From the NCBI GenBank assembly GCA_016179685.1, contig JACPCR010000061.1, forward strand, positions 28,336 to 92,335: a DNA stretch of 64,000 nucleotides, in the 5' to 3' direction. Positions 1 through 37,536 of the stretch are shown piece after piece; the stretch's first letter is position 1, and each line of letters starts with the position of its first letter. Both the position numbers and the translations under genes were made by a program. Origin of the DNA: Planctomycetota bacterium (GTDB lineage: Bacteria > Planctomycetota > PUPC01 > JACPCR01). The notes beneath the pieces are model-generated. The model ran no database searches. It saw nothing but the letters and a program-made list of their open reading frames with translations, and had not been told where the DNA came from.

Positions 1-146
1 TTCGATCGGATAGGTGGCATCGGGCGGCCATCGGCGCGACCGCTCGACGCGTTCCACATACCGTGCCGCAAGAAGATAGACGCCCAAGGCGCACATCAAG
101 AAGAGAAGATGCTTCATGGACGGGTTGCAGGGTCGAGTTGGCTTCC

Positions 147-1829
147 CTATTTCACCGATCTTTCCGGCTTGAAGATGTCGTAAACCCACCAGCAGATTCC
201 AGAAACGACGGAGAGGATTGCTGCATGCGCGATCGCTCCGGCGGTGAGCACCGAGAGGGTCAATACGATCGATTCATCTCCCGATTTCAGGAACGAAAGC
301 TCGTCGAACCGGGTGCCCATCTGGACCGCCGGGCTTGCAAGGTCCATCAGGAAGTAGAGGCCGATAAGGAGCAGGGCCGACCAAGCCATTGAGGCATGGA
401 GTGACGTGGGCTTTTTCCCCGGATTCTGCGAAGGATGCAGGCAGAGCCCGAGAAGGAGTCCGGTCACGGTCCCAACGTTCAAAATATGCTCCAGAAAAGG
501 AGCATTCGCGCTGATGCTGAGGGGGCCGCCGGTCACGTTTCCAAGGATTGCGCCCGCGAACAGTCCCACAAGGGGAAAGACGGGACGATGCCATCGCGGG
601 ATACGCGCGACCCCGTCCGTAGAAATTCCCGAGGACTCGGATGCAGCCCGCGGAGAACACTGCGCGCCGGAGGCATCAGGCTGGCTGATTTCTGCCAGCC
701 TCTGATGGATCAAGCGTTGAAGCCACTCCAGCTCCTTCCAGGACAGCCCGTGCCCGAAGCGGATGGAAGCTCGGTCCGACCTTGCCACGAGAAACCCGGC
801 GAACTCCTCGTAGGCCATATCCAGGTGGCCGTTGGTGTCACGCCGGACGAGCGCGACTTCCTCGAGTTCCTGGATCGGGAAATCCACGGTCTTGCGAAAG
901 ACGAGCCCCTTGAAACAGGCTCGGAGGCGCTCGGGTGAAAGGTCGACGTCGGCAGAGAGGCCATACCGGACCTTGAGCCACCCCAAAAACGTGCACAAGG
1001 GAGGCAGTATGCCGACCAGGGGATTGCCCAGGAAGCCTACGGGAATCGTCCAGAAAAGAAAGCCGACGACCGAGACCCTGGCCAAAGTCATGGTGGCCGG
1101 CCGCGGCACCCGGATTCGCAAGTGACCGTCAGGCGATTCTTCAACCTCAGATCGGCAGTCAGCAGGCCTGTCGGGTGGCGATGCAGGTGCGGGGGCAGCC
1201 GAGGCCACTCGTTCCCGGAGAGAAAGGTCAAGCTCGTGGTAGCCGCGGGTGACGCCCTGGGTCGCATCGTGTATAGGAAAGCGCAAAAAATGCGCTGCGG
1301 CCTCGGCGATTGGGACGGCACTCTCCCACGTGCCCGCGCGCCCGAGCAGGACAGGCTCGGATTCTCCCGACAAGCTGATGCAATAGACGGTGTTCGTTCT
1401 CCCTTTACCAGCCGGCTCCTCTCTCCGATCCAGGAGGACCTTCGAATAGCCGGACAACTTCCCACGCGTCCTCCACACCCAGACGCCCATGGCCAAGCCA
1501 GTGGAAAATGTCCCCTTGCGCCGGTCCAGCACGACCTGTTCCCGTCCGAATAGCAGGGCCGAACCGTAGAATGCGATCAGTATGAGAAAACAAATCAACA
1601 CCATGACGATGAGGGTGACGAAGGGGATGGGAATAACCCCTCTCCAGAGCATTCGGCCAAATTGGAGTTCCCCCATTATGCCGATGACAAGCAAGGCGAC
1701 CGCTAGAACGAATGAAGCCCCCCTGGAGCGCTGCTTGAAGATCAGGCGCTCAGATTCCCAGGAGTCGATACCGTACCGAACATGGGGGCCGCTAGGCGGG
1801 GGGAGGATGAGCTCAATCGATATGGGCAT
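147..1829 (-). CDS. hypothetical polytopic membrane protein
   Basis: 560-aa ORF with several long hydrophobic segments and ordinary amino-acid composition. No recognisable catalytic motif. The overlapping + strand ORFs are Arg/Gly-rich. Confidence 0.55.
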   Translation of the reverse strand: MPISIELILPPPSGPHVRYGIDSWESERLIFKQRSRGASFVLAVALLVIGIMGELQFGRMLWRGVIPIPFVTLIVMVLICFLILIAFYGSALLFGREQVVLDRRKGTFSTGLAMGVWVWRTRGKLSGYSKVLLDRREEPAGKGRTNTVYCISLSGESEPVLLGRAGTWESAVPIAEAAAHFLRFPIHDATQGVTRGYHELDLSLRERVASAAPAPASPPDRPADCRSEVEESPDGHLRIRVPRPATMTLARVSVVGFLFWTIPVGFLGNPLVGILPPLCTFLGWLKVRYGLSADVDLSPERLRACFKGLVFRKTVDFPIQELEEVALVRRDTNGHLDMAYEEFAGFLVARSDRASIRFGHGLSWKELEWLQRLIHQRLAEISQPDASGAQCSPRAASESSGISTDGVARIPRWHRPVFPLVGLFAGAILGNVTGGPLSISANAPFLEHILNVGTVTGLLLGLCLHPSQNPGKKPTSLHASMAWSALLLIGLYFLMDLASPAVQMGTRFDELSFLKSGDESIVLTLSVLTAGAIAHAAILSVVSGICWWVYDIFKPERSVK

Positions 1830-2028
1830 GCCTAATTTTTCAACGACTGACCCGGAGACGAATCGTTCGTCCCTCCGCGTTTGGATGGGGCTCGAGCAGG
1901 GGCTTCAGCGGGGGGATGTCTTCGAGGGCAGTCCCGTTTAGTGTAATATCTTCTAGGTTGACCAATCCGGTGAGCGGAGTCAGATCGGAAGTTAACATGT
2001 TTTATAATATGGACTTATAATTGATGCT

Positions 2029-2056
2029 TTGACAGCAAACAAATTGATGCTATGAT
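2029..2056 (+). promoter_or_regulatory. sigma70-type promoter (TTGACA-N16-TATGAT) upstream of vapBC
   Basis: -35 hexamer ttgaca at 2029-2034, 16-nt spacer, -10 hexamer tatgat at 2051-2056. It lies inside a conspicuously AT-rich stretch (about 1935-2110) in an otherwise about 68% GC window. Confidence 0.55.
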
Positions 2057-2126
2057 GCCACTTTCTGCTGAATGCCGATTATCCATCAGTCAAACAGAAT
2101 CAAAATTGCTTAACAGGGGAATGGCC

Positions 2127-2393
2127 ATGCGGACAACGATTACCATCGACGACGACTTGTTCGCGACCTTGAAACAGGAAGCTTTCAAGAATCACATGTC
2201 GTTCAAAGAGATAGTTAACAGAAGCCTTCGGTCCGGTCTCAAAGCGACCACCCACCCAGGTCAATCCCGGCGTTATATCTGCAGGACGTTTCCCATGGGG
2301 TATCCACCGCTGGTGAATATTGATCGTGCCCAAGAAATTGCCGACCTGCTCGAGGAAGAAGAAATCGTCCGAAAACTCGAACTGCGAAAATGA
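2127..2393 (+). CDS. vapB: type II antitoxin VapB, ribbon-helix-helix family
   Basis: MRTTITIDDDLFATLKQEAFKNHMSFKEIVNRSL fits the RHH strand-helix-helix pattern. Its stop overlaps the vapC start (ATGA at 2390-2393). Start 2127 was chosen for GGGGA spacing; 2121 is also possible. Confidence 0.75.
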   Translation: MRTTITIDDDLFATLKQEAFKNHMSFKEIVNRSLRSGLKATTHPGQSRRYICRTFPMGYPPLVNIDRAQEIADLLEEEEIVRKLELRK

Positions 2394-2821
2394 AAGTTGT
2401 TGACATCAATCTCTTGCTCTATGCCGTCAATGTTGACGCACCCCACCATGCCAGGGCCCGGGCCTGGTGGGAGGAAACTCTCTCAGGTGAAGAACCCGTT
2501 GGACTAGCGTGGTCGGTTGTGCTGGGTTTTCTGCGGGTCTCAACGAGCGGCCGGGTCATGCCTCACCCTCTCAAGCCCGACCAAGCCCTGGACTTGATGG
2601 AGGAATGGCTGGGGTTGCCTCCTGCAACAATATTGTTGCCGACGGAGCGTCATTGGGAAATTTTCAAGGCTTTGCTTCTGCCCCTGGGCATGGCTGGCAA
2701 CCTCACGTCGGACGCCCATCTAGCTGCCTTGGCGATCGAGCACGGTGCTCGATTATACTCTTCGGACAATGATTTTGGCAGGTTTCCGCACCTCCGCTGG
2801 GTCAATCCGCTTGCTGCTTAA
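2390..2821 (+). CDS. vapC: PIN-domain ribonuclease toxin VapC
   Basis: 143 aa beginning MKVVDINLLLYAV with an early acidic residue, and a C-terminal SDAHLAALAIEHGARLYSSDNDF motif typical of PIN/VapC. Translationally coupled to the upstream antitoxin. Confidence 0.85.
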   Translation: MKVVDINLLLYAVNVDAPHHARARAWWEETLSGEEPVGLAWSVVLGFLRVSTSGRVMPHPLKPDQALDLMEEWLGLPPATILLPTERHWEIFKALLLPLGMAGNLTSDAHLAALAIEHGARLYSSDNDFGRFPHLRWVNPLAA

Positions 2822-2869
2822 TACGGAAACGTTACGCTTCCGCATTGCATAGTCATTCCTTGGCAAGCC

Positions 2870-5315
2870 CTAAGATTCAAACATCGCACGCCACCGTGTT
2901 GCCGAAGCCGTCGTCGTCACCGGAACAAGCCATGCCCCTCCGCTCCCGCGCCGGGCCGTGACGGGTTGGCCGTCCACCTCAGCGCCCCGCATGGCCATGC
3001 CGGATGCGCTGATGGCCACGTAGCCCTGATGACCTGCGGGACGCACGGCTACGCCGGACAGGACTCGAGTTTCCAAGTTCCACCGCACGTCTTCCAGCTC
3101 GGCCCCGCAACTCTGGTGGAAGCTCGTCCCGGCCACCCATGGGTGCGGCCGCGGCCGGCGCAGGCACAGGAGCTTGACGCCGGGCCCGGCAAAGGTGATG
3201 TCCAGCCAGCCAGGCTCGCCGCCGACCGACAGGTCCTGATGGTCGCCTGGGTGCACGTAACCCTTTGGATTGACACGCTTTGACGGAATCAGCCCGAGAA
3301 ACTGGCCCGACCAGAATTCATAGGCCCAGTACTTCTCGGACGGGCAAAGCCCCACCCGCTCGAAAGGGAGGGCGAACCGGGCGATTTTTGGCGGCTGACT
3401 CGATCCTCCCGCGGTGTCGAAGGCGAAAAACGCCACCAAGTCCCATTCGTCCCAGTCCCGTTTGAAGTGAAGATGCCAGACACAGCCGGGCGGGTGCTCA
3501 CGGACCTCCGTGGCGTTTGCCTTTTCGCCCTTGCAGACCGCCACGTAATCGGCATTCCCAGGGTCATACGCCGGCTCGAAAAGATCGACCGCTCTGGCGG
3601 ATGCGTCCGGCGGCGGAAGTGTGGCCTCGAGCACTTGCCACCGTTCCTCCGGCAGCGACTGGAGGGTGTCCCCGACGTCGATCTGGCCGCCGCTGAGGAA
3701 GGCGGCGGTCGCCCGCATCCGGGCTTCGTCGAGGGTGCCGGGCAGTCCGACGCACAGGCAGGAGGTCTGGATCAGGCCCCACCGGCGATTCTTGAACAGA
3801 TGGCACGCCATGGAGCGAAGATTCGCCCGCTGGAAATCCCAGGTGATGCAGCCCGTGTTGCCCGTGTCGTTGCAGGTATACAGCAGAGGCCACTGGCCCG
3901 TCCCCGGCAGCTCGGGCCCGCCGCAGTTGAGCAGAAGCGCGCCGGGCAGCTCCTCACGGAGAATCCGGGCGCCCCTGCGGGCGGCCTCCACCCCGGACCC
4001 CGCAACCATGCGCCGGTCGAACCGCCTCTTGGCCAGGGCGTGGCAGGCGAAGCCGAGGAAATCGCCCTTGAAGTAGCGCACTCCCTTTCGATGCAGCGCC
4101 CGAACCTTTTCCCGCAAGTACTCCTGCGCGCCCGGGTGGGTCAGGTCCAGGATGAATATCTTCCCGTGCGGCTGCCAGAACCAGGTCCAGGCCTCCGCGG
4201 GCTTACCCTGTTCGTCCAGGATGAGCCACTCCGGGTGCTCCCTGGCCACGGGATCGAACTCGCTGACGGCGAAGGGTGCTTTCCAGACGCCGAGCTCGAG
4301 GCCCAGGCCTTTCAATTCTCCGGCCAGCCATGCGAGCCCCCGGGAAAACTGTTCGTTCTCCTCGAACACGCTCGGCAACTGGCCCTTCTCCCACCCGAGG
4401 TCGGCCTCGATGATCTTCATGCCCAGAGGAGCGAGCCGCTCGGCCGCTATCCGGGCGGTCCCGAGAATCCGGTCCTCCGTCACGCCCAGTCGATAGGGAT
4501 ACCAACTGCACCAGGAAACGACGGGTCCTGGTGGAATCTCGGGCCGATGCCGGGCCCGCACCAGGTCGCCATACGATTCCATCAACACGTGCGGGTCAGG
4601 CCCCACGAGGAGGACCGCATCTTCAAGCTCGACGGTCTCGCCGGGTATCAGCAGCAGGTCCCCGCCGTCGAAGCCGAGAGCCCATCGCTCGACGTTCCCT
4701 TCCGCACCGGTGCGCAGCTCGATCTGTCCGTTCCAACGCTCGCTGGTCTCGTATCCGGCCAGGAACGCCTTCTTTTCCCCGCGGTCATAAAACACGGCAA
4801 AATGGGTGGAGGCCAGTTGCCGCGGCTTGAGCGTCTGCGGCCCGGGCGATCCGGGTTCCGAACCCGACGCGGCCGTGATTTTCGGCGACTCCTGAAGCGC
4901 CACGACGTCCCCGTGGTATGCACCCTGGACCAGCACGCGCACCTGTCCCGGCCGAGAACCGAAACGAATGGACGACCCGGCCTGGTCCGTCTGCAGCAGT
5001 TCCACTCGGTTCAGCACCGCCTCGGTCCGGCCCGTGTAAGAGAGCTGGCTTCGCCATTGCACGCCGCAGCAGCCCGCTGGAAGGGCTTGAAGCCGAAACC
5101 GCGCTCCGCCTTCGAGCTCGTATTCTGCGGTCACTCCTCCGGCAGCCGCCGGAGTCGCCGCTTGCCACCGGAGGACCCTGCGGCGGATGCCCTCGAGCCA
5201 CACCGCCGGCGCGAGGCCGGCCAGCGAGAATCCTTCCCAGCCCGGGCATCGAAGGTGAACGAATCCGGACGAATCCATCGACGTTTCCAGCCGAAGGTCA
5301 CTTGAATCTGCCATG
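2870..5315 (-). CDS. glycoside hydrolase, alpha-galactosidase-like (GH36/clan GH-D-like)
   Basis: IEADLGWEKGQ (DDGW-like) and RYFKGDF (K-x-D nucleophile-like) motifs, and about 815 aa of TIM-barrel-like sequence. Start set at ATG 5315 (MADSSDLRLET); the 65 aa upstream in the track ORF are Arg-rich and probably not coding. Confidence 0.5.
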
Positions 5316-5365
5316 GGGAACACCGGTCCTGGGTTACGAAGATTCCGAAGCGCTCGCGTACGCTT

Positions 5366-5604
5366 AGCCGACGCGTGGTGGCAGGCGGCCACGCCTGCCT
5401 TCCCCTCCGAGGCGCGCACGCGTAGCCGACGCTTCCCAACGGGATGAACTCCGAGGGGGGGCGGACGCACAGCGACCGCGCTACCTGGCCCCCGGCGCGC
5501 TCGTGCGCGCAACGCGTAGGGGGAGCGGACGCACAGCGACCGCGCTACCTGGCCCCCGGCGCGCGTCGTAGCATGCGGCCGCGCCTGCCACCCCCTCCGG
5601 CGCG
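5366..5604. repeat. tandem direct repeats (about 65-bp period) in an intergenic region
   Basis: Exact 40-nt duplication gcggacgcacagcgaccgcgctacctggcccccggcgcgc at 5461-5500 and 5525-5564. It is flanked by degenerate copies of cgcgtag... and ggcggccacgcctgcc motifs. Confidence 0.7.
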
Positions 5605-8700: not shown

Positions 8701-9056
8701 GTCCTGACCAGCACCAGGGTCGCCGAGGCGCCGCCTTCCGCCTGCCGGTAGAGCGCTGCGTAGAGTGGCGTCAGAAGGTCCAGAAGTTTTGGGAGAACGA
8801 GGCAATAGAACCCCACGCCGATCTCGAGCAGGCCGTAGAGCCGGACCGGGTTGTTCCGGCGGTCGGCCATGCGGCCGCCCCAGAAGCTGCCGAGGGCGAG
8901 ACCGCCCATGAAGGCGGCGAGGACCGTGGCCGTGGCATGGACCGAATTGCCGAACACGTGGCCCAGCAGGCGGCTCCAGACGATCTCGTAGACGAGGCCG
9001 CACGCGCCCGAGAGGAAGAAACAGGCCAGCAAGAGCAGTGTTCGCCCGCGCACCAT
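5742..9056 (-). CDS. fused MFS-like membrane domain / spermidine synthase-like aminopropyltransferase / C-terminal TPR repeats
   Basis: N-terminal about 450 aa with many TM helices. Central VLVIGLGSGMT...DVITSEPSNPWMAGVGDLFTLEFW segment is a spermidine-synthase (class I SAM MTase) fold. C-terminal has repeated TPR-like helices (NLGVLLVARQ..., AHTNLGVLMVRRGRFEEA...). ATG at 9056. Confidence 0.8.
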   Translation of the reverse strand: MVRGRTLLLLACFFLSGACGLVYEIVWSRLLGHVFGNSVHATATVLAAFMGGLALGSFWGGRMADRRNNPVRLYGLLEIGVGFYCLVLPKLLDLLTPLYAALYRQAEGGASATLVLVRTLACGLLLLVPTTFMGATLPLLLRAFVRRAEGFGRAVALVYALNTFGAVTGTVLTGFFLIPKLGVQATVWTAVGVNVAVGLVAVLFLGRRQVPAEQATEAADSEVTSGGPEQPVVFTPWEARASLIAFGVSGFAAMADEVALARVCSLLLGSSTYAFSLMLTAFILGIGLGSLILAAWIRPTRELIPWVGAAQAWIGVFTLVMVFLIGRLPVWVLAALARYRDAFGWLQWTEFLYLFGLMVIPTSLMGAMFPLTAAIWTRRLESLGRSTAEVYGVNTLGAILGSLSAGFLWLPGLGVQDTLILGAALNFGACSIVLLSFRTWGLAKRVNRAAAVIGLAALCVFLLPRWDMHSMTSAPFLYGVMKLKPESDPRAIVEEVARLHGAIRYSRDGTACTVTVKESSPGVLHLAVNGKVDATSVGDMNTQKLLGHLPALLHPSPREVLVIGLGSGMTLGSILTHGPDRADCVEISPEVAEAVSLFFREFNGDCLNHPAARLLIGDGRNHVFLTDHRYDVITSEPSNPWMAGVGDLFTLEFWQKCRERLSDDGIMCQWLQTYQLDLPTFHLILRTFHQVFPEMGIWYASSADLLLIGSKQPLRVDLAKLGPRLDRPQVKADVELIGVADAATLLAHFLTDGEGAARLAGPGLLHTDDNARLEFDMPRQMYRSYLDPVLQFETTMKPVAAILAEGAAGQEEMKRLAQVRQAVWHLHMSAMWLKVEKVDKALDRVRAAQAAHPGDLEALLALYELLNDHAGRLYEAKQTDRACLALQELLTLLPPILALEESGPERLRRRLQNLGSPSDLFAKAACNLGVLLVARQPERGAAGEAELESAIEAFELALKLDPNSTQAHTNLGVLMVRRGRFEEALPLLEKAVSLATESERPRLRFNLGLVLDNLGRPDEALEQLAVAAQAEIGPACVRMGLIYEKLGRFSDAAESYQSALKVNARDRQAASHLESLRSSGKLGPDSGNRDDGKGQTDRPEKLMP

Positions 9057-9068
9057 TTACCCCCATCC

Positions 9069-9116
9069 TAGTAGACGCGTTCGCAAGTGCACCCGCACCT
9101 GCGAACACATCTACTA
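9069..9116. repeat. palindromic hairpin element, family copy 1 (12-bp inner stem, accc loop, 7-bp outer stem)
   Basis: tagtaga-cgc-gttcgcaagtgc-accc-gcacttgcgaac-aca-tctacta. Inner and outer arms are perfectly complementary. The apex AAGTGCACCCGCACTT is shared with hairpins at 39317, 45594 and 45809. Confidence 0.7.
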
Positions 9117-9144
9117 TAGGAAACCCCAGCGAAATAGGGAAGCC

Positions 9145-9203
9145 CGATATTCCATAAGTGGCCAGTTCACAAGTGGTTAAATTTGAATGACTCTTGAATT
9201 TCG
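9145..9203. repeat. conserved 59-nt intergenic block, copy A
   Basis: cgatattccataagtggccagttcacaagtggttaaatttgaatgactcttgaatttcg; 55/59 identical to 45713-45771. Internal direct repeats aagtgg x2 and ttgaat x2. Sits 150 bp upstream of the aminotransferase ATG. Confidence 0.65.
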
Positions 9204-9353
9204 ATGGGGCTTCAAGAGCGAGTCACCCTATTTGCCAGACACCTCGTCTTGCGCCGTACCGAGTGCAATCCTGCCTGCTCCCCGTACAATGCTTTTCATT
9301 GTTTCCGGCAACGCGGAAATTGTTTCCCAGCTTTCTTGGTGGCGACGTCTTCC

Positions 9354-10649
9354 ATGGGGCACCCTGCAGGAAACGGGACATCGCCGGAAACTCTCGTTTC
9401 CCGCCGTGAGATGCTCGGCGCAGCCGCGGCCACGCTCGGCCTGCTGGCAGGCGGCGGGCTGTCCTCCGCGGCCGGCGGGGAAGAAGAGGACAGCCTCGAT
9501 TCGCTCCGGGGCCCCGCCGGCGTGCTCTGGGACCGAGTTCACAAACAGTTCCGGCTTCGCGGGGGACTCGCCTACCTCAACAACGGGTCCCTCGGCCCCT
9601 GCCCCGTCCAGGTGGTTCAGGCCGCCATCCAGGCCTGGCGCTCCCTCGAAGAAAACCCGGCGGATATGGCCTACGGGCCCCTTCTCGAGAAAATGGAAGC
9701 GGCCCGGACCCGCGCCGCAGGTTTCCTCGGCTGCGCCACGGAGGAATTGGCCGTCACCGGCAATACCACAGAGGGCATGAATGCCGTCGCCCAGGGCATA
9801 CGCCTCGAAGCGGGCGACCGCATCCTCACGACGGACCAGGAACACCCCGGGGGCCTGGCTGGCTGGGGATACCGCCAGAAGCACGAGGGCGTCCCGGTGG
9901 ACCTCGCGGCCCTGCCGACACCGCCAGCGAGCCCAGAGGCCATCGTCGAATCGATCCAACGAGGCCTCACGAAGGCAACACGGGTCATCAGCGTCAGCCA
10001 CGTCACCTATACGACCGGCCTCCGCATGCCCATCGAAGCCATTGCGAGCCTGGCCCGTGCGAACGGTGCGCTCCTGGTCGTTGACGGGGCGCAGGCCCCG
10101 GGGGTGCTGGACGTCGATGTCACACGCCTGGGGTGCGACGCCTACGCCACCAGCGCGCACAAGTGGATGCTCGCGCCTAAAGGCACCGGCCTGCTCTACG
10201 TCCGAAAAGAAAGTCAGGAAAGGATCGCGCCCCTCCTCCTCCAGCACGGATACCGGTCGTATACGGCCTCGACCGGCACCCGCAACGTTCCCGCCCTCAT
10301 CGGACTCGGCGCGGCCGTCGAGTTCCTCCAGCGGCTGGGGAAAATCGACATCGAACGCCGCGCCCTGACCCTGCGCACTCATCTCTACGAGGTGCTCCAG
10401 ACCCTTCCCGGCATCCAAGTGGTCAGCCCGCCCCCGGGCGACCTCGCCTCCAGCCTCCTGACCTTCACGCTCCCCAACGGGAAACAACCGGCAGCGGTCG
10501 CCAAGACTCTGGCCGAAGAGTATGGAGTCATCGTGCGTGTCATGTCCCACGGAAACGTACAAGGCATCCGCGTTTCCACCCACATTTACAATTCAGAAGC
10601 AGATTTGGACCGGCTGGTGTCCTCACTCCGCAAGGGGCTCGGCAAGTAG
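9354..10649 (+). CDS. class V aminotransferase (PLP-dependent, cysteine desulfurase / isopenicillin-N-epimerase-like) with Tat-type signal
   Basis: Twin-arginine motif SRREMLGAAAATLGLLAGG. Class V fold motifs LNNGSLGPCP, TTDQEHPG and the SAHKWMLAPKGTGLLY lysine-containing PLP site. ATG at 9354. Confidence 0.75.
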   Translation: MGHPAGNGTSPETLVSRREMLGAAAATLGLLAGGGLSSAAGGEEEDSLDSLRGPAGVLWDRVHKQFRLRGGLAYLNNGSLGPCPVQVVQAAIQAWRSLEENPADMAYGPLLEKMEAARTRAAGFLGCATEELAVTGNTTEGMNAVAQGIRLEAGDRILTTDQEHPGGLAGWGYRQKHEGVPVDLAALPTPPASPEAIVESIQRGLTKATRVISVSHVTYTTGLRMPIEAIASLARANGALLVVDGAQAPGVLDVDVTRLGCDAYATSAHKWMLAPKGTGLLYVRKESQERIAPLLLQHGYRSYTASTGTRNVPALIGLGAAVEFLQRLGKIDIERRALTLRTHLYEVLQTLPGIQVVSPPPGDLASSLLTFTLPNGKQPAAVAKTLAEEYGVIVRVMSHGNVQGIRVSTHIYNSEADLDRLVSSLRKGLGK

Positions 10650-10695
10650 CGAAGCCATGCACCTCAGCGAAGCGCATGGTGCATGGCTTCGCTAC
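10646..10695 (+). terminator. perfect 18-bp stem-loop directly after the aminotransferase stop (no U-tract)
   Basis: gtagcgaagccatgcacc / ggtgcatggcttcgctac arms with a 14-nt loop tcagcgaagcgcat. The loop near-duplicates part of the stem, allowing an alternative pairing. Starts 1 nt upstream of the TAG stop (10647-10649), overlapping the last codons, and continues into the 3' UTR. Confidence 0.4.
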
Positions 10696-10753
10696 TCCAT
10701 GGATTGAATTTCCGAAACTGTTACCCGAGTTCGCCGGTGGGTATCGACTTGTC

Positions 10754-10774
10754 TGACACCTGACACCTGACACC
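10754..10774. repeat. (TGACACC)x3 tandem heptamer immediately upstream of CDS 10788
   Basis: tgacacc tgacacc tgacacc followed by ttttt. Ends 14 nt before the ATG at 10788. Confidence 0.8.
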
Positions 10775-10787
10775 TTTTTCTCTGAAC

Positions 10788-23700: not shown

Positions 23701-24462
23701 ATGGCAAGAGTCCATGATCCTGGGAAGAAGAAACGGAGCACGGCACGAAGAGTTGCCAGGACGGTGAGAACTCGGCCGGTAGGATCGAAACCTGCCCCCA
23801 CCGGCGCACGCGGGAAGAACGCGGCAAGAATCCGAGGCATCGCTGAGGGACTCCGCCATCTCTACCCGGACGCCACCTGCGAGCTGCGCCACGATAACCC
23901 GCTCCAGCTCCTCGTCGCGACCATACTTTCGGCCCAATCCACTGACAAGAGGGTCAACCAAGTGACCGAAACGCTTTTCGCCCGTTATCAGACTGCGGAG
24001 GACTATGCACGGGCCGACCCTGCTGAGTTCGAACAGGAAATCCGGTCCACAGGCTTCTACCGCAATAAGACCCGAAGCGTGTTGGGCGCTGCTCGCCGCC
24101 TCGTCGAGGGTTACGGTGGCCGTGTGCCGGAAACGATGGAAGAGCTTCTGACGCTGCCGGGAGTAGCACGAAAGACGGCGAACGTCGTGCTGGGCACGGC
24201 CTTCAGCAAGCCGGCCGGCGTCGTCGTGGATACCCATGTCAAGCGCTTGGCCTGGCGTCTGGGCCTCTCGAACGAGAAGGTCCCGGAGAAAATCGAGCGG
24301 GACCTCATGGAGCGATTTCCCGTGAACGAATGGATTTTCATGGGGCATGCCCTGATCTGGCACGGTCGGAGGGTCTGTCATGCCCGTATGCCCAAATGTG
24401 GACAATGTGCCTTGGCGGGCGTGTGTCTGAAGCGCGGACTGGGGATGTCGATGAAGAGGTAA
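23701..24462 (+). CDS. nth: endonuclease III (DNA-(apurinic or apyrimidinic site) lyase)
   Basis: HhH-GPD motif LPGVARKTANVVLG with the D of VVDTHVKR, and the 4Fe-4S cluster CHARMPKCGQCALAGVC. ATG at 23701. Confidence 0.9.
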   Translation: MARVHDPGKKKRSTARRVARTVRTRPVGSKPAPTGARGKNAARIRGIAEGLRHLYPDATCELRHDNPLQLLVATILSAQSTDKRVNQVTETLFARYQTAEDYARADPAEFEQEIRSTGFYRNKTRSVLGAARRLVEGYGGRVPETMEELLTLPGVARKTANVVLGTAFSKPAGVVVDTHVKRLAWRLGLSNEKVPEKIERDLMERFPVNEWIFMGHALIWHGRRVCHARMPKCGQCALAGVCLKRGLGMSMKR

Positions 24463-24938
24463 ATGGCTGTATGCCCGTCTTCAATGACCCTCATCATTTC
24501 AATTTGACAGAAGGTATCGAAATTTAATGATATGGCAGTCGCCGCCACGGCTCGTTGTCTGGATTACGGTGTTCTGGTCAGCGACCGCGACGAGGCGCTT
24601 TTTAGATCCGTAGCCGGTCTCGAAGTCGTCAAGTTGGGTTAGACCGTCGCAGGCGTATACCCCCGGGACTTCCCGGCACGGCGGAGCAAGGTAACTGCTG
24701 AGTGGTCGTCACCGGAGGCCTGTTTCTGTGAGTCCCGAAGGGACGTCCGAAATGAGCCCAGGGCACCAGTTCGCCGAAGCCCCGCGAAGGCGAACGCAGC
24801 CCTGGGAAGGGAAGCGCATCAACCACAAGAGTCCCGTAGGGACGACAGAAGTTTTCGCTAAGGAGTTACGGAGCAAGAGCCTCATCATTTCAACCGGTAT
24901 GCCGCAGCGAGAGGCGCGACTGAATCTGAGTGACTCAC

Positions 24939-24967
24939 GTGACGGTGTCGAGTCGCTCCGGTATAAT
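24939..24967 (+). promoter_or_regulatory. candidate promoter (gtgacg-N17-TATAAT) upstream of the MBL-fold gene, overlapping a palindrome
   Basis: Perfect tataat at 24962-24967. A -35-like gtgacg lies 17 nt upstream. The gtgactcacgtgac palindrome is adjacent and may be an operator. Confidence 0.35.
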
Positions 24968-25032
24968 GTGTATGTGAACCACAAAGTGACCGCTCGCATG
25001 CACTCTCGACTCCTGAAGTTGGCGAAAGCTCA

Positions 25033-25809
25033 TTGAAGATCACCATCCTGGGTTCTGGGACTTCGCACGGGGTGCCGATGATCGGCTGTTACTGCCCCGT
25101 CTGCACCTCCTCGAACCCCCAGAACCGGCGATTCCGTCCCTCCGTCCTGGTCAGCCAGGGGGAGCGGAACATCTTGGTCGACGCTGGCCCGGACATCCGC
25201 TTGCAGGCCATCACCTTCCGCGTGAACCATCTAGATGCCGTGATGTTCACTCATTCCCATGCGGACCACATTCTTGGCGTCGATGACCTCCGGCTCTACA
25301 ATTACCGGAGCGGCAAGAAGCTGCCCTGCTACGCCGACGCCGCAACTTTGAAAAGGCTCGCCACGGTCTTCGATTACGCGTTCGACGACCGAGTAACCGA
25401 GCAGAGCCGGCCGATGCTCCTCCCGGTTGAAATTCAGGGTCGGTTCGACCTTTTTGGACTCTCGGTGTCGCCTTTGGAGCTTTATCACGGGAAGCTCCAA
25501 ATCTTGGGATTCCTGTTCGAGGATGCGGCCGGCCATCGGTTCGGCTACGCTACGGATTGCAGTTTCGTCCCGGCCCAGGCCGAGGAGCGACTGCGAGGAG
25601 TCGATTTGCTCGTCCTGGATGCCCTGCGCTATGATCCTCATCCGACGCACTTCAGCCTGGCGCAGGCCGTCGAGGTGGCCCGTAAACTGTCGCCCCGGCA
25701 AACCTTATTCACCCATATCACGCACCAGCTCGAACAGGGGACCGTCAATGCCAGCCTCCCGCCCGAGATTCAGCTTGCCTTTGACGGGCAGGTGATCGAT
25801 TTCCCATGA
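25033..25809 (+). CDS. MBL-fold metallo-hydrolase, PhnP-like
   Basis: ILGSGTSHGVP, Cys cluster GCYCPVC, and HxHxDH (FTHSHADHILG). The track start is TTG at 25033, so the exact start is uncertain. Confidence 0.7.
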   Translation: MKITILGSGTSHGVPMIGCYCPVCTSSNPQNRRFRPSVLVSQGERNILVDAGPDIRLQAITFRVNHLDAVMFTHSHADHILGVDDLRLYNYRSGKKLPCYADAATLKRLATVFDYAFDDRVTEQSRPMLLPVEIQGRFDLFGLSVSPLELYHGKLQILGFLFEDAAGHRFGYATDCSFVPAQAEERLRGVDLLVLDALRYDPHPTHFSLAQAVEVARKLSPRQTLFTHITHQLEQGTVNASLPPEIQLAFDGQVIDFP

Positions 25810-25938
25810 GTCCGCGGCGGCGGCAGCGCGGGGGAGACTCTTGCAGCAGCCGAGGCAGCCGCTGGATGTCTCGCCCGGCAAGAAGGTGGGGAGGCTGGCC
25901 CCGCCGAATGGGTGGCCAATCCAGAGGTCTGAACGGTC

Positions 25939-28704
25939 ATGCTGGCCGACATTCTTCATCGTGAAATCCTTCCGAGGGTGGAGAAGCCCAGCCGTTACCT
26001 CGGCACGGAGCTGAATACGGTCCGTAAGGACCCTGCCTGCGTGGATTTCCGGATTTGCCTGGCTTTTCCCGACAGCTACGACATCGGCCTGGGCAACCTC
26101 GGGCTGCAGATTCTTTACCACATTCTGAACCGGCAGCCGCGTGTCTGGGCTGAACGCGTTTATGCGCCGGGCCTGGACATGGAGGCGCAGCTCCGCCGAC
26201 GTGGCCTGCCCCTCTTCAGCCTGGAGAGCCGGACGCCGCTCGACCAGTTCGACGCCATCGGTTTCACGCTCCAGTGGGAGCTGACCTACACGAACATTTT
26301 GAATCTGATCGATATGGCTGGCCTTCCCGTGCTCGCCCGGGAACGGGACGAGCGCCATCCCGTTCTTCTGGCAGGCGGGCCTTGCGTGTTCAATCCCGAA
26401 CCTTTATGCGATTTCATGGATGCCTTCGTCATGGGCGATGGCGAAGAGGTTGTACTCGAGGTCGCCGAGGCCCTTGTCGATGCCAAGGGAAGCAGCCGCG
26501 GCGCGCAGCTCGAACGACTCGCTCGAATTCCCGGCGTCTATGTGCCCGCCCTCTACCCCATGCGCCCAACGGAGGATGGGTCGCTCATCATGCCGGAGGA
26601 CGCCCGCCCCATCGTCAAGCGCACGGTCGCCGCCCTGGACACGGCCGCGTTCCCCACGGAATACATCGTCCCCTACACCCGACAGATTCACGACCGCGTC
26701 AGCCTCGAAGTCCTCCGCGGCTGCACGCAGGGCTGCCGGTTCTGCCAGGCGGGCATGGTCACGCGGCCCGTCCGCGAGCGCACGCTTCCGGATCTCGACC
26801 GGCTCATGGAGGAGACCATGCGGAAGACCGGTTACGAGGAAATCTCGCTGGTGAGCCTCAGCACCTGCGACTACAGCCAGGTCAAGACGCTGGTCCAGCA
26901 GAGCGTGGCGAGGGCCGTTCCGGAAGGGGTTTCCGTCTCGCTCCCTTCGCTGCGTCTCGATTCCTTTTCCGTCGAGATGGCGGACATGATCTCGGTGATG
27001 GGAAAAAGCGGGCTGACCTTCGCGCCCGAGGCGGCGACGAACCGGATGAGGGCGGTCATCAACAAGTGGATACCGGACGAAGACCTGCTGGAGATGGCCC
27101 GGGAGGCCTATGAGCGCGGCTGGGACCACATCAAGCTCTACTTCATGATCGGATTGCCGACGGAGCGGGAGGAGGACGTTCTGGCCATCGCCGACCTGGC
27201 CAACCGGGTCCTCGGGGTGGGCAAGTCAGTCCTGCGCAAGGCGCGGCTGAACCTGGGGGTCTCCACCTTCTGCCCGAAGCCGCACACGCCATTCCAGTGG
27301 GATCGGCAGATTCTCCTGGAGGAGACGGAAGCGAAGCAGGACCTGTTGATGCGAGGTCTTCGGCCGGGTATCAAATTTGGACGGCACGACGCCCGGGAGA
27401 GCTTTCTCGAGGGGGTGCTCTCTCGGGGTGATCGGCGGACGGGCCGGCTGCTCCTCGAAGCGCACCGTCTGGGTTGCCGCTTCGACGGCTGGCGTGAGCA
27501 CCTCGACTGGTCGAAGTGGCAGGAAGCTTTCCGCCGCTGGGGCTTCGACGCGGCGGACCAGCTTCGGGCCCGCCGGCTCTCCGAGCCTCTGCCCTGGGAT
27601 CACATCGATAGCCTTGTCCCGAAGAGCTGGCTCATAGCGGACTACTGGCGATCCCGCGGTCTCGTGTGGCAGGGCGACTGCCGCCATGCTCGTTGCAATC
27701 AATGCGGCGTCATCGACCGAGAAAAAGACCTCTGCGTATCCATGTTGCGGAAGAGCCACAAGGACCGGAAGGCCGAGAATGCCCGCCAGTTCCCGCGGAT
27801 CGAGCGGCCGCCAGAACCCCCGCCAGCCGCCAGGTTGCGCCTCCGCTTCGCACGCCGCGGGCTCGTCCGGCTGCTCTCTCACCTTGAAATGATGAACATG
27901 TTCCTCCGGGCCATCCGGCGCGCTCGATTGCCGGTCAGCTACACCCAAGGTTTCAACCCTGGCCCCAGGGTGGCCTTCAGTTGTGCCCTTCCGGTAGGCC
28001 TCGAAACCGAGGGCGACTACATGGACATCCACCTCCGGGCAGCGGTGCCGCCTGAAGAGGCCCGGGAGCGGCTCAACGCTGTATTGCCGGAGGGCTTTGA
28101 AATTCTCCGGGCAGCGGAGGTGCCACTGAGAAGTCCCGCGCTCATGGCGGTCGTCGCGGGCGAGCGATACCTCGCCCGCATCGAGGGGCCCGTCCGACGG
28201 AGCCCGGAGGCGCTGGCGGACGCCGCCCCTGAAGTGGAAGGGGAAGGAGGTGGCAGCGCGGCCGGCGCGGCGGCATGTCCATCGAAAGACCTTCTCGATA
28301 GGATTCTGGGCGCTGCCAGGTGCATGAAAAGCCGGGATGCCCTCTGGGTGGACAAGGAAAGCAAGAGAGGGAGAGTCCGCCGGGAAAATCTCCTCGGATC
28401 GATCGAAGAAATTCGGGCCATTCGGGAGAGCTCGGGGCGCCTGGCCGTTGAAATGCTCCTGCTCAAGCAAGGCGAGACCAAGGCGAGTGCGAGGCAGGTC
28501 CTCACCGCCCTCGCGCCTGAAATCGCTTTCGAGGACTGGCGCATCGTCAAGCTCGAAACCTATGTTCGCACTCCCTCCGGCCTGGCGGGCCCCATCGATG
28601 CGCCGGACGCGCTCCGGCCCGGCGGGCCCGGCCCGGCCATCGTGCCGGATTCGTCCGGCACGGAATCCCATCCGGCGCAGCCCGCCTCCCTTTCAGCTCG
28701 GTAA
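25939..28704 (+). CDS. radical SAM enzyme with B12-binding-like N-domain fused to a DUF2344-type C-domain (TIGR03960/TIGR03936-like fusion)
   Basis: CxxxCxxC (LRGCTQGCRFCQAG) about 250 aa in, preceded by a Rossmann-like B12-binding-type domain. C-terminal about 300 aa matches the radical-SAM-linked DUF2344 pattern. 921 aa. Confidence 0.75.
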   Translation: MLADILHREILPRVEKPSRYLGTELNTVRKDPACVDFRICLAFPDSYDIGLGNLGLQILYHILNRQPRVWAERVYAPGLDMEAQLRRRGLPLFSLESRTPLDQFDAIGFTLQWELTYTNILNLIDMAGLPVLARERDERHPVLLAGGPCVFNPEPLCDFMDAFVMGDGEEVVLEVAEALVDAKGSSRGAQLERLARIPGVYVPALYPMRPTEDGSLIMPEDARPIVKRTVAALDTAAFPTEYIVPYTRQIHDRVSLEVLRGCTQGCRFCQAGMVTRPVRERTLPDLDRLMEETMRKTGYEEISLVSLSTCDYSQVKTLVQQSVARAVPEGVSVSLPSLRLDSFSVEMADMISVMGKSGLTFAPEAATNRMRAVINKWIPDEDLLEMAREAYERGWDHIKLYFMIGLPTEREEDVLAIADLANRVLGVGKSVLRKARLNLGVSTFCPKPHTPFQWDRQILLEETEAKQDLLMRGLRPGIKFGRHDARESFLEGVLSRGDRRTGRLLLEAHRLGCRFDGWREHLDWSKWQEAFRRWGFDAADQLRARRLSEPLPWDHIDSLVPKSWLIADYWRSRGLVWQGDCRHARCNQCGVIDREKDLCVSMLRKSHKDRKAENARQFPRIERPPEPPPAARLRLRFARRGLVRLLSHLEMMNMFLRAIRRARLPVSYTQGFNPGPRVAFSCALPVGLETEGDYMDIHLRAAVPPEEARERLNAVLPEGFEILRAAEVPLRSPALMAVVAGERYLARIEGPVRRSPEALADAAPEVEGEGGGSAAGAAACPSKDLLDRILGAARCMKSRDALWVDKESKRGRVRRENLLGSIEEIRAIRESSGRLAVEMLLLKQGETKASARQVLTALAPEIAFEDWRIVKLETYVRTPSGLAGPIDAPDALRPGGPGPAIVPDSSGTESHPAQPASLSAR

Positions 28705-32410: not shown

Positions 32411-32775
32411 TTGGGTATCCTCCATGCAGGTGTTCATGCCCCATGGGCATGAGAAATCCTTCGATCCCGACGCCCGCTACGCGACGGCCCCGAGAAACTT
32501 GAATGAGACCACCATGTCCCCCTTTTTTCAACCCCCCGCACGCCAGCGAAAACGGGAAGAGCCGGGAAGCCGCGGCAGGATCCAAGAACCATCTTGAGCC
32601 AATCCTATCAAGATGGAACGGCATCGCTTCGCGATTGACATTCCGAGATTGAGAAGATACACGAGGGGCTACAGGTGTTGCGCCTCCGCAGAATCCCGCT
32701 GGGGGGCTTTTGACTCGTACGCCGGAACGGGAGGCATTGGGGCATCCCGTTCCGGCGTACGAAGGAGTTCATTTC

Positions 32776-33798
32776 ATGAAGCTCGGCCTCGGTCTTTATA
32801 CCAGCATGTTCACGGACGACAACCTCCGTTTCGCCCGTCAGCTCGGGGTGACTCATCTCGTCGCGCATCTGCCGTTCCCTCCGGGCGACGGCGTGTGGGA
32901 ATTCCTCGATATGCTTCGGCTGAAGAAGTACGCCAATTCCTTCGGTCTGGAGCTGGAGGCCTTCGAGAATTTCCATCCCGCCCATTGGCACAAAATCCTG
33001 CTGGACCTGCCCGGCAAGGAGGTCCAGATGGAAAACCTGAAAACGACGATCCGGAACATGGGCAGGGCTGGCATTCCGGTCATGGGCTACTATTTCAGCC
33101 TTGCCGGGGTCTGGGGCCACTGGCGGGCCGGCAACAACAACACGGGCGGCCGCGGAGGCGCCGGCATCAAGAGCTTCGATTACGACCTCGTCCGTGACGC
33201 TCCCTTCATCCGTCTGGGCGAGGTCTGGGGCGGCTGGAAGGTCGATGAGCATGCCACGCCCGGCACCCTCGGCGAAGTCTCCCAGGAAGTCCTCTGGGAG
33301 CGCTTCCGCTACTTTCTGGAAAACCTCGTTCCCGCCGCCGAGGAGTCTGGCGTCAGACTGGCGGCGCACCCGGACGACCCGCCCGTTCCGGTGCTGCGCG
33401 GCGTCGGCCGACTCCTCACCAGCCATGAAGGTTACAAGAGGCTGATCGAGATGAAACCGAGCCCATCGAATGCGCTCGAGTTCTGCCAGGGCACGGTCGC
33501 GGAGATGGGGCAGGACATCTACGAGGCCATCCGCTACTTCGGCTCGAGGGGAAAAATCGCCTACGTCCATTTCCGAAACGTCCGCGGGGATTTTCCGAAC
33601 CGGTTCGACGAGGTCTTTATCGACGAGGGCGACGTGGATATGGTCCGGGCGATGCGGGCCTACCAGGAGGTGGGATACGATGGGGTGTTGATCCCGGACC
33701 ACACGCCGCACGTCACCTGTCCGGCGTCCTGGCACGCCGGGATGGCCTATGCGCTCGGCTACATGCGGGCCTGCTTGCAGCACCTGGGGGCCGCGTGA
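32776..33798 (+). CDS. uxuA: D-mannonate dehydratase (UxuA family), paralog 1
   Basis: AAHPDDPPVPVLRG, GDVDMV and VLIPDHTPHV match UxuA signature regions. GAAGGAG RBS before the ATG at 32776. Confidence 0.85.
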   Translation: MKLGLGLYTSMFTDDNLRFARQLGVTHLVAHLPFPPGDGVWEFLDMLRLKKYANSFGLELEAFENFHPAHWHKILLDLPGKEVQMENLKTTIRNMGRAGIPVMGYYFSLAGVWGHWRAGNNNTGGRGGAGIKSFDYDLVRDAPFIRLGEVWGGWKVDEHATPGTLGEVSQEVLWERFRYFLENLVPAAEESGVRLAAHPDDPPVPVLRGVGRLLTSHEGYKRLIEMKPSPSNALEFCQGTVAEMGQDIYEAIRYFGSRGKIAYVHFRNVRGDFPNRFDEVFIDEGDVDMVRAMRAYQEVGYDGVLIPDHTPHVTCPASWHAGMAYALGYMRACLQHLGAA

Positions 33799-33845: not shown

Positions 33846-34199
33846 ATGGGACTCACTTATATCGAAGGAGTGGTGGCCGGGCCCACCGGAAGACGAAGGA
33901 CGTTGGAATTCCTTGTTGACAGTGGCGCCATGTACTCTTTATTGCCCCACAAGGATTGGAAATCGATCCGGTTGGCTCCCAAACGGTCCATGGTCTTCAC
34001 CTTGGCTGACGGCACGAAAATAGAGCGCCGAATCTCGGAATGTCATATGGCTCTGCCACAAGGGGAAGGCCACACCCCTGTTATTCTTGGCGAACCCGGC
34101 GATGAGGCTCTTCTCGGAGTGGTCACGCTGGAAAACTTGGGCCTTGTCTTGAATCCTTTTAATCGGACCCTACAACCCATGCGCATGCTGCTGGTATAG
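33846..34199 (+). CDS. small retropepsin-like (clan AA) aspartic protease domain protein
   Basis: 117 aa with hydrophobic-hydrophobic-D-S-G-A (FLVDSGAMYS) and the C-terminal GxxxL pattern of the retropepsin fold. Inserted between two uxuA paralogs. Confidence 0.6.
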   Translation: MGLTYIEGVVAGPTGRRRTLEFLVDSGAMYSLLPHKDWKSIRLAPKRSMVFTLADGTKIERRISECHMALPQGEGHTPVILGEPGDEALLGVVTLENLGLVLNPFNRTLQPMRMLLV

Positions 34200-34327
34200 C
34201 CCGTATCCCTGTTCAGAAGCGCGGGTGCACTTCTGAACAGGGATACGAGGGAAGATGCGGCGCGGGTCCGCCCGGGGCACCCGGACTTGCAGCCTCTGAA
34301 TTTCCATCCCGTCGAAGGAGTTTACCC

Positions 34328-35350
34328 ATGAAACTGGGACTCGGCCTCTACCCGAGCATTCTGACGGACGACAACCTCAAGTTCGCCCGCCAGCTCAGCG
34401 TGACTCACATCGTCGCCTGGATGCCCCTTCCCGTGGGCAACGGCGTCTGGGAGTTCGCTGACCTGCTCCGTCTGAAGAAGTACATCAACTCTTTCGGGCT
34501 GGAGCTGGACGCCCTCGAGAATTTCCAACCTGCCCACTGGGACAAGATTCTCCTGGACCGACCCGGCAAGGAGGCGCAGATGGAGAACCTGAAGGCGACC
34601 ATCCGCAACCTGGGCAAGGTCGGCATTCCCATCATGGGTTACTATTTCAGCCTCGCGGGGGTGTGGGGGCACTGGCGGTCCGGCAGCAACAACTCGGCCG
34701 GCCGCGGCGGAGCAGGCCTGACCAGTTTCGATTACGACTTGGTGAAGGATGCTCCACTGATTCCCAAAGGCGAGGCCTGGTGCGGCTGGAAGGTGGAGGC
34801 GGACCCTGAGCCGGGCACGATCGGCGAAGTGGCCCACGCGGAGATGTGGGAGCGCCTCCGCTACTTTCTGGAGAGCCTCGTTCCCGTCGCCGAGGAGGCC
34901 GGCGTACGGCTCGCGGCGCACCCGGACGACCCGCCCGTGCCGGTGCTGCGCGGCACCGCGCGTCTTTTGACGTGCCATGAGAACTACAGGCGTCTGATCG
35001 AGATGAAGCCGAGCCCGTCGAACGCGCTCGAGTTCTGCCAGGGAACCGTCGCGGAGATGGGGCAAGACACCTACGAGGCCATCCGCTACTTCGGCTCAAG
35101 AAAGAAAATCGCTTACGTCCACTTCCGCAACGTCCGCGGGGACTTCCCGAACCGGTTCGACGAGGTCTTCATCGACGAGGGCGACGTGGACATGGTCCTG
35201 GCGATGCGGGCCTATCTGGAGGTGGGATACGATGGGGTGCTGATCCCGGACCATTCGCCGCACGTGACCTGTCAGTCGCCCTGGCACGCCGGGATGGCCT
35301 ACGCCCTCGGCTACATGCGGGCCTGCATGCAGTTCCTGGGCGTGAAATGA
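34328..35350 (+). CDS. uxuA: D-mannonate dehydratase (UxuA family), paralog 2
   Basis: About 80% amino-acid identity to 32776-33798 with the same RBS. The C-terminal 150 codons are nearly identical at nucleotide level. Confidence 0.85.
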   Translation: MKLGLGLYPSILTDDNLKFARQLSVTHIVAWMPLPVGNGVWEFADLLRLKKYINSFGLELDALENFQPAHWDKILLDRPGKEAQMENLKATIRNLGKVGIPIMGYYFSLAGVWGHWRSGSNNSAGRGGAGLTSFDYDLVKDAPLIPKGEAWCGWKVEADPEPGTIGEVAHAEMWERLRYFLESLVPVAEEAGVRLAAHPDDPPVPVLRGTARLLTCHENYRRLIEMKPSPSNALEFCQGTVAEMGQDTYEAIRYFGSRKKIAYVHFRNVRGDFPNRFDEVFIDEGDVDMVLAMRAYLEVGYDGVLIPDHSPHVTCQSPWHAGMAYALGYMRACMQFLGVK

Positions 35351-36533: not shown

Positions 36534-36570
36534 CATATGCGTACGGCAATGCACCCTTACTTCTGTACGC

Positions 36571-37443: not shown

Positions 37444-37536
37444 GCCCCAACCCGATGGCCTACTGAGAATCAGGTCTGCACGGCTCTGCCGGGCACTCGC
37501 TTCCCACCGGGAATGAAGCCGCGGTAAAATAACCCC

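Follow-up and report, generated by a model that had tools for sequence, protein, structure and literature searches.

A number of long, nearly palindromic hairpins with a common apex lie scattered through a 64,000-nt stretch of the genome of an uncultured Planctomycetota bacterium, here termed the window, raising the question of whether these are chance palindromes, signals at transcript ends, sites for a binding protein or copies of a dispersed repeat. The answer proposed here is that they probably constitute a new, lineage-specific family of repetitive extragenic palindromic (REP)-like sequences of the double-foot long type. The window is part of a 101-kb contig of an NCBI metagenome-assembled genome (MAG), in which it spans locus tags HYU36_07990-08185 and proteins MBI2191908-MBI2191947; GpsA, a protein of the MR/MLE family and other products of the window are identical to these. 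Genome and window share a GC content of around 64%, and the gene content of the window comprises ordinary housekeeping genes alongside others typical of Planctomycetes. The hairpins cannot be attributed to misassembly, because independent Logan assemblies from several sequencing runs contain the same DNA at 100% identity. No strain variation was found at the hairpins among these Logan contigs, all of which derive from the same organism at 100% identity, and the 1.3 kb of sequence beyond the window that they supplied contains no hairpin. All copies counted below come from the 64-kb window.

A family of palindromes with compensatory stems

Four hairpins had been pointed out in an earlier note on this sequence, and these are indeed found at 9069-9116 (copy 1), 39317-39360 (copy 2), 45594-45639 (copy 3) and 45808-45855 (copy 4). 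Common to them is the apex AAGTGC-ACCC-GCACTT, in which a 6-bp helix closes the loop ACCC. When up to two mismatches are permitted, this 16-mer occurs five times in the window against an expectation of 0.26, and no shuffled sequence reached that number. The fifth occurrence revealed copy 5 (34200-34249), in which the family top, AAGTGCACCCGCGCTT, lies on the - strand, and a repeat finder added the degenerate copy 6 (36530-36578). Two further long hairpins, at 10645-10696 and 32715-32762, have feet (AGTAGCG... and CTCGTAC..., respectively) matching that of the family and tops that differ from it. The family of four was hence real but incomplete: copies 1 to 6 are clear members and the hairpins at 10645 and 32715 distant relatives, making eight in total.

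The six clear members can be aligned over 58 columns without a gap, and this alignment shows the unit to be an inverted repeat of approximately 48 nt in which three zones can be told apart. Of these, the foot is semi-conserved, reading C-T-[A/C]-G-[T/C]-A-[G/C/T] along with its complement, C-T-[A/G]-C-[T/G]-A-G; the middle stem differs in sequence among copies while retaining complementarity; and the top, AAGTGC/GCACTT in columns 22-37, is nearly invariant. Units are around 80% alike. Taken as a 22-bp stem and a 4-nt loop, the alignment has 90.9% of its cells paired and a covariation score of 0.506, with changes to both partners in 11 of the 22 stem pairs; none of 500 shuffles attained these values for pairing, double changes or covariation, and sliding the pairing partner by one to three columns lowered pairing to 23-48%. 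Double changes number 3, 3, 1 and 2 at columns 18 to 21. Among them is the pairing-preserving exchange already described between copies 1 and 3 (ttCgc/gcGaa against ttAgc/gcTaa), which is real, as is the core cgtgtaRggaagtgc shared by copies 2 and 4. The argument built on these observations, that covariation of this kind reflects selection on a hairpin rather than chance, is borne out by the number of compensatory pairs and the failure of every shuffle to match it, and it is supported that either selection or a mechanism preserves the hairpin.

A covariance model built on the six copies was run over the whole window without filters, a scan that the earlier note had suggested for the entire genome. 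It recovers the six copies at 59-77 bits and the two weaker relatives, and nothing else in the 64 kb. The highest score, 77.4 bits, belongs to copy 3, a perfect palindrome of 21-22 bp (-41 kcal/mol) followed directly by TTTT; it is the only perfect stem among the four that had been described as individually perfect, since copies 1, 2 and 4 all contain mismatches. Copy 2 scores 74 bits and has one A.C and one G.T mismatch, while copy 1, a 48-nt hairpin with its ACCC loop on the + strand, scores 73.5 bits, and copy 4, also read on the + strand, has a 22-bp stem with a single G.A mismatch, a CCCC loop and a score of 72.7 bits. Copy 5, on the - strand, scores 71.1 bits. Copy 6, on the + strand, is decayed: it is recognised at 58.6 bits through its sequence, its stem being largely lost. 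The relative at 32715 combines a 21-bp stem, a 6-nt loop and the foot CTCGTAC...GTACGA (29.8 bits, E 6e-7, matched over 32710-32767), and that at 10645 a perfect 19-bp stem, a structured 14-nt top and the foot GTAG...CTAC (15.3 bits, E 0.03, matched over 10639-10702). The window contains six long hairpins, counted as such if they had 16 or more pairs and no more than two mismatches, compared with about 0.05 in simulated sequence (a single instance across 20 first-order Markov simulations).

As RNA, the units are predicted to fold with free energies of -27 to -43 kcal/mol and z scores of -8 to -12, with the exception of copy 6, the structure of which is lost (z -1.1). The three mismatches of copy 1, which are A.C or C.A on the + strand, become G.U pairs on the - strand, where the fold strengthens from -26.7 to -38.1 kcal/mol. 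Reading the strand under selection from such asymmetries between G.U and A.C was attempted and rejected, as the copies are inconsistent with one another. A search of the window against Rfam found no matches at the gathering score, and the permissive mode yielded only chance-level matches (E >= 0.2).

The hairpins appear to be a recent acquisition when the window is compared with its relatives. The nearest GpsA relatives are about 68-73% identical, and four of these relatives, with GpsA identities of 68-72%, share the gene order methyltransferase-YdjY-gpsA-DUF2851-HEAT/WD40. The covariance model has no match in the approximately 62 kb of DNA from their four syntenic stretches, and a repeat finder identified only one hairpin of at least 16 bp there, of 18 nt. 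The points at which synteny breaks in the window coincide exactly with copies 3 and 4, on the upstream side of gpsA, and with copy 2, on the downstream side of the WD40 gene. Because the model finds nothing in these four relatives, the family, as judged from this comparison, is a gain or expansion specific to the lineage rather than an old conserved structure, and the locus offers a compact case of recent hairpin-repeat expansion.

Gene ends, TAG stops and a doublet

All eight hairpins are intergenic or situated at gene ends. Those at gene ends are associated with a particular stop codon: in each of the four genes with a hairpin at the 3' end (those ending at 10649, 34199 and 36533, and the - strand HEAT/WD40 gene ending at 39360), the stop is a TAG in or next to the foot, compared with TAG stops in five of the other 32 of the window's 36 genes (Fisher ~0.002, from a small sample and post hoc). 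The family foot CTAGTAG itself contains two in-frame TAGs on each strand. Copies 5, 6 and the 10645 hairpin lie between tandem + strand genes. Copy 5 directly follows the stop (34197-34199) of an aspartyl-protease-like gene, the MR/MLE gene stops at the TAG in the foot of copy 6 (36531-36533), and the aminotransferase gene at 9354-10649 stops at that in the foot of the 10645 hairpin. The placement of TAG in relation to the foot is a testable hint as to how targets are chosen.

Copy 2 is located between convergent genes. On the - strand, the TAG of the HEAT/WD40 gene (39362-39360) overlaps the foot, and the hairpin begins at this TAG; the encoded protein has its last residue at the same position as its orthologues, which places the copy exactly at the native stop. 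On the + strand, the isochorismatase open reading frame (ORF; 38623-39363, 246 aa in the MAG record) reads through the entire copy to a TAA at 39361-39363, such that its last 15 residues, RRRVGKCTRTSLHAY, are encoded by the repeat. Twelve homologues of this isochorismatase end 3-21 residues, most of them within 12, past a conserved YL. The insertion of copy 2 overwrote the last codons of the isochorismatase gene.

The remaining copies are found in divergent regions. The hairpin at 32715-32762 lies in such a region 34 nt upstream of the first of two UxuA-like paralogues (32797-33798 and 34328-35350, with 300 nt at 78% identity), between which the small aspartyl-protease-like gene is situated; copy 5 lies 78 nt upstream of the second, so that each paralogue is preceded by a long hairpin. 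A - strand gene encoding a fused MFS/spermidine synthase has its ATG (9056) 12 nt from copy 1, which lies upstream of it in the divergent intergenic region 9057-9353. Within the coding region of this gene, 75 nt from copy 1, the 10-mer CTCGTAGACG (8985-8994) is the same as the 5' foot of copy 2, probably by chance. Copies 3 and 4 occupy a 786-nt divergent stretch between gpsA and an HpcH aldolase gene.

Copies 1 and 3 are both embedded in a longer repeat (9057-9203 and 45581-45771), which consists of a 12-nt left flank, the hairpin, the 9-mer GGAAACCCC and a 75-nt AT-rich core. The flank at 9057-9068, TTACCCCCATCC, is matched by TTATCCTCCGCC at 45581-45592, and on the - strand presents a Shine-Dalgarno-like GGRGG followed by TAA. 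The 9-mer forms an arm at 9119-9127 after copy 1, recurs after copy 3 and is present as its reverse complement before copy 4. The two + strand instances of the core, the first at 9129-9203 and the second at 45697-45771, between copies 3 and 4, are bounded by GCGAAA...TTTCG in the former case, and are 88% identical overall and 93% identical over the inner 59 nt. The conserved block that had been noted between copies 3 and 4 is therefore real but not confined to that position, as it also follows copy 1.

In the second instance, the core is enclosed by two complementary arms on the + strand: the left, at 45643-45696, reads GGAAACCCCTCC...AGGGATTC...GGGAGGCGAAA and pairs with its reverse complement at 45764-45804, TTTCGCCTCCC...GAATCCCT...GGAGGGGTTTCC. 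The fold of the 281-nt region (-151.9 kcal/mol, z -13) consists of two terminal hairpins and, around the core, a long helix in the centre, with copy 3 as the left and copy 4 as the right member and the loops of both on the + strand. Copies 3 and 4 are hence the two members of an inverted doublet, with a conserved AT-rich core between them, an arrangement similar to that of REPINs (hairpins formed by REP doublets), and copy 1 looks like half of such a unit. Neither promoter scans nor reading of the sequence gave a convincing match of the hairpin arms or the core to sigma-70 or extracytoplasmic function (ECF)-type promoters.

The surroundings of the longer repeat include a number of separate features. 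The possibility that the core next to copy 1 abuts a start codon at 9204 was rejected, the true aminotransferase start being the ATG at 9354: third-position GC resembles that of non-coding DNA until around 9384, and NCBI annotates the start at 9354. This ATG is followed by a twin-arginine (Tat) signal, SRREMLGAAAATLG, on account of which the aminotransferase (9354-10649) is probably exported. At the other locus, an imperfect 20-nt inverted repeat of 80% complementarity lies at 45542-45582, between copy 3 and the start of gpsA, with the Shine-Dalgarno-like flank and then a possible 15-codon, TTG-initiated frame on the - strand.

Weighing a repeat family against its alternatives

The identification as a REP- or REPIN-type family is based on the combination of dispersed units around 80% alike, retained pairing, a decayed copy, insertion into a gene end, placement at stop codons, the inverted doublet and the absence of the units from relatives. 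The mostly extragenic location of the copies, the compensatory changes in their stems and the GTAG...CTAC foot are further points in favour of this type. The units probably spread as single-stranded DNA hairpins mobilised by an HUH-Y1 tyrosine transposase encoded elsewhere in the genome, either of the REP-associated tyrosine transposase (RAYT) type or of the TnpA(Y1) class 3 type. Such an enzyme would read the foot and the top, which is proposed as the reason why these two zones are conserved in sequence and the stem between them in its pairing only. As a by-product, inserted units would probably be co-transcribed with their neighbours as RNA hairpins of -27 to -43 kcal/mol, which would act as barriers at 3' ends or as insulators between genes.

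Several observations weigh against this identification. The copies are known from one 64-kb window only, and no gene for a Y1 or RAYT transposase (PF01797-type), for a class 3 enzyme or for any other transposase was detected among the 30 window ORFs scanned with Pfam. Searches further afield did not reveal an independent population of copies: no true copy was found in Joint Genome Institute (JGI) metagenome contigs, searched with an exact 20-mer pattern, or in viral contigs, searched with a 16-mer, both giving chance, non-palindromic matches alone, and a degenerate 14-base motif, a pattern too unspecific for the purpose, returned 117 matches from a genome collection, all of them attributable to chance and without palindromic context. 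GTAG is present in three of the eight feet only (copies 1, 2 and 10645), the others having GCAG, GCAC, GTAT, GCAT or GTAC, and in every copy the foot tetranucleotide is base-paired with the 3' end rather than forming an unpaired tag. Stems of 19-22 bp exceed the 5-13 bp of the catalogued GTAG and CGTC families (PMC3733652), being roughly double the length found in any of these, and conservation is greater in the top than in the foot, whereas foot-guided recognition by a RAYT alone predicts the reverse. Divergent promoter regions, in which REPs are usually rare, hold four of the eight hairpins, at three sites (copy 1, copies 3 and 4, and 32715). Beyond the association with TAG, no signature of a target site was found; reading the flanks of copies 1 to 6 revealed no target site duplications, which is, however, also what HUH-Y1 transposition predicts.

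The location of half of the hairpins at gene ends brings to mind transcript termination, and the earlier note had seen a hint of this in the TTTT following copy 3, as well as allowing that all copies might prove to be ordinary rho-independent terminators. The T run is real, and no credible + strand gene lies upstream of it. As intrinsic terminators the units are rejected: terminator scans called none of them, the T run is restricted to this one copy, four of the eight hairpins are in divergent promoter regions, and relatives end the same genes without such hairpins. A broader version of this idea is that the units are non-mobile RNA elements at transcript 3' ends, terminators lacking a U tract or barriers to exonucleases, which resemble each other through local duplication or through convergence on a GUGC-ACCC-GCAC top. 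In its favour are the position of copy 2 between convergent genes and of copies 5, 6 and 10645 at stop codons, the great stability of the hairpins (-32 to -43 kcal/mol) and the compatibility of mismatches in copies 1, 2 and 5 with G.U pairing. Yet for copies 1, 3, 4 and 32715, in divergent regions, there is no gene upstream that they could terminate; elsewhere in the window, gene ends such as that downstream of gpsA use unrelated short hairpins; and convergence does not explain 49 nt of alignable sequence with shared flanks. Nor does the orientation of G.U pairs track the transcribed strand, as copy 5 pairs better opposite to its neighbouring genes. Together with the hairpin-free gene ends of the four syntenic relatives, these points make the 3'-end explanation unlikely.

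A near-invariant top above a compensating middle stem is the pattern to be expected from loop-specific recognition coupled to a structural requirement, and the units might therefore be sites for a sequence-specific protein that reads either an RNA or single-stranded DNA tetraloop hairpin or the 6-4-6 palindrome AAGTGC-N4-GCACTT, serving as immobile regulatory or punctuation motifs. The position of copies 1, 3 and 32715 upstream of three genes, on one strand or the other, would suit such a role. However, the associated genes (MFS/spermidine synthase, gpsA, uxuA-like, isochorismatase and WD40) have no common function, operators do not need palindromes extended to 22 bp, one copy has decayed and another is within a coding end, and the motif is absent from relatives. 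This explanation is considered rather improbable; it is also compatible with a REP-like family, in that the protein recognising the top could be the transposase. A more specific proposal is that the hairpins are not passive REP-like DNA but a punctuation system of this lineage linked to stop codons, with a dedicated protein reading AAGUGC-ACCC-GCACUU, a foot that supplies or overlaps the TAG and so couples the termination of translation to hairpin formation, and the doublet with its core as the master or regulatory locus, such as a small RNA gene with a unit on either side. This, too, would be a quite improbable state of affairs.

For copies 1, 3 and 4 alone, the AT-rich core and its arms might represent a small RNA gene or a portable promoter or leader cassette that the hairpins merely bound or insulate. 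The core is AT-rich in a genome of 64% GC and more conserved than the adjoining hairpins (93% over 59 nt against 80%), both instances are intergenic, in divergent regions, and have in common their orientation to a - strand gene and a conserved Shine-Dalgarno-like left flank, the region is strongly structured (z -13), and a G-to-A change inside GUGR...UCAC maintains pairing. Its occurrence in two copies, though, permits no test of covariation, Rfam has nothing resembling it even in permissive mode, no sigma-70-like promoter was called in or next to it, relatives lack it, and solo hairpins (copies 2, 5 and 6) exist without it, leaving the cassette quite improbable. As Pasteurellaceae uptake signal sequences (USS) arranged in inverted pairs can serve as terminators, a further candidate is that the top is a DNA uptake sequence in inverted pairs. 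On the - strand it reads AAGTGCGGGT, which resembles the Haemophilus USS core, AAGTGCGGT, at eight of nine bases. This candidate was rejected for the window and has a negligible probability, given that the 9- and 10-mers of the top are almost wholly confined to the hairpins (each 10-mer exclusively so) instead of being scattered through coding DNA, and that the two halves of the top are one 6-bp palindrome and not two uptake sequences.

Whichever enzyme or protein is responsible, the unusually clear three-zone pattern of a semi-conserved foot, a freely covarying middle and an invariant top predicts what the cognate factor must recognise. The units also matter for annotation, accounting for spurious C-terminal tails and over-extended ORF starts as well as for contig breaks in assemblies of short reads. 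A further palindrome, AACTTCTCCGCGCCCGC-TAGC-GCGGGCACCCGGCGGAGAAGTT, which includes GCACCCG, is located at 44121-44163; two independent Logan contigs stop at its centre (44137), and another stops at 45625, inside copy 3. Perfect palindromes appear to break short-read assemblies. Adjacent to this palindrome, in the DUF2851-gpsA intergenic region, the inverted pair GGTGTCAG...CTGACACC is followed by TTTT (44168-44203), and CTGACACC also occurs three times in tandem at 10753-10779, followed by TTTTT, just 5' of a gene starting at 10788; this second small motif is unrelated to the hairpin family.

Elsewhere in the window, GC content is lower (~0.60 compared with 0.65) in 1-4000 and 24000-26000. 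The first of these regions contains a VapC (PIN) toxin gene at 2390-2821 with a small ORF upstream, and a membrane protein without a Pfam match, a variant of which differing by one residue is present in one Logan assembly. Two 54-nt direct repeats that are 93% identical and 64 nt apart (5447-5500 and 5511-5564) are found at the 5' end of, or upstream of, the - strand melibiase-like gene at 2870-5512. Cumulative GC skew falls from 0 to a minimum of -0.55 at around 36000-38000 and then rises to +0.09, without simply tracking gene orientation; no replication genes were seen.

Relation to known repeats

Of the systems with which the hairpins can be compared, rho-independent terminators are similar in being GC-rich hairpins directly after stop codons, as is the case for copies 2, 5, 6 and 10645. 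They differ in that a U tract is absent from seven of the eight units here, stems are three times as long as usual, a common sequence runs through the units and some of these are located in divergent regions. Miniature inverted-repeat transposable elements (MITEs) have terminal inverted repeats, whereas the present unit is itself an inverted repeat, and no direct duplications were seen on reading the flanks of copies 1 to 6.

Class 3 TnpA(Y1) genes, which come chiefly from Planctomycetes and Acidobacteria, have atypical hairpins at their flanks, and these can reach around 600 copies in one host (PMC6006769). The family described here is similar in host phylum and in consisting of hairpin repeats that are not canonical REPs. 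The CnGA foot of the class 3 hairpins fits only copy 3 (CCGA), and was rejected as a general description of these units; no class 3 gene was seen in the window.

REPINs are inverted doublets of REPs, and their hairpin shows compensatory changes (Bertels and Rainey 2011, PMC3116915). Their defining arrangement, in which two inverted REPs with their flanks and spacer fold into a single large hairpin, is found at 45594-45855, where copies 3 and 4, the inverted arms and the spacer do so, in a single instance. The half unit (copy 1) and the decayed unit (copy 6) likewise resemble singlets derived from REPINs. By contrast with REPINs, each REP here is itself a near-perfect palindrome of 48 nt and is less conserved than the spacer core, and in the one doublet seen, the loops of the two units are turned to the same strand.

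The GTAG super-family of REPs (Di Nocera et al. 2013, PMC3733652) is represented in Planctomycetes by GTAG-20 and GTAG-21 of Rhodopirellula baltica, a species that also has many tyrosine transposase genes. Its members, like the present units, are short, dispersed and mostly extragenic palindromes in which alternative complementary stem residues and G.T pairs are common, and for which location within gene ends and dimers are documented. Catalogued GTAG and CGTC REPs have stems of 5-13 bp and loops of 2-20 nt (PMC3733652, Table 1); the 4-nt loop here is within that range, but stems reach 21-22 bp, GTAG is paired, and present in three of eight units, where the catalogued families have an unpaired tag, and it is the top that is best conserved.

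A further comparison is with double-foot long REPs, which have a 5' GT[AG]G, a 3' C[TC]AC and a loop of 2-5 nt, are tied to subclass 2.4 TnpA(REP) and can arise when an inverted REP dimer loses its central part by deletion (Quentin et al. 2018, PMC6006769). Copies 1 and 2, with loops of 4 nt, and the 10645 hairpin have this GTAG...CTAC layout, although the latter has a structured 14-nt top and the feet of other copies are degenerate (GCAG, GCAC, GTAT and GTAC), that of copy 3, for instance, being GCAG...CTGC. The suggestion that the hairpins are an undescribed REP- or BIME (bacterial interspersed mosaic element)-like family can hence be kept in part: a REP-like family is the best fit and its sequence is new, but the kind of element has already been described, in Planctomycetes as elsewhere, in the form of REPs, double-foot long REPs and REPINs (PMC3733652, PMC6006769, PMC3116915). 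Such elements are well studied in Proteobacteria and hardly at all in Planctomycetes, and the family in this window would extend the double-foot long type to an uncultured member of that group.

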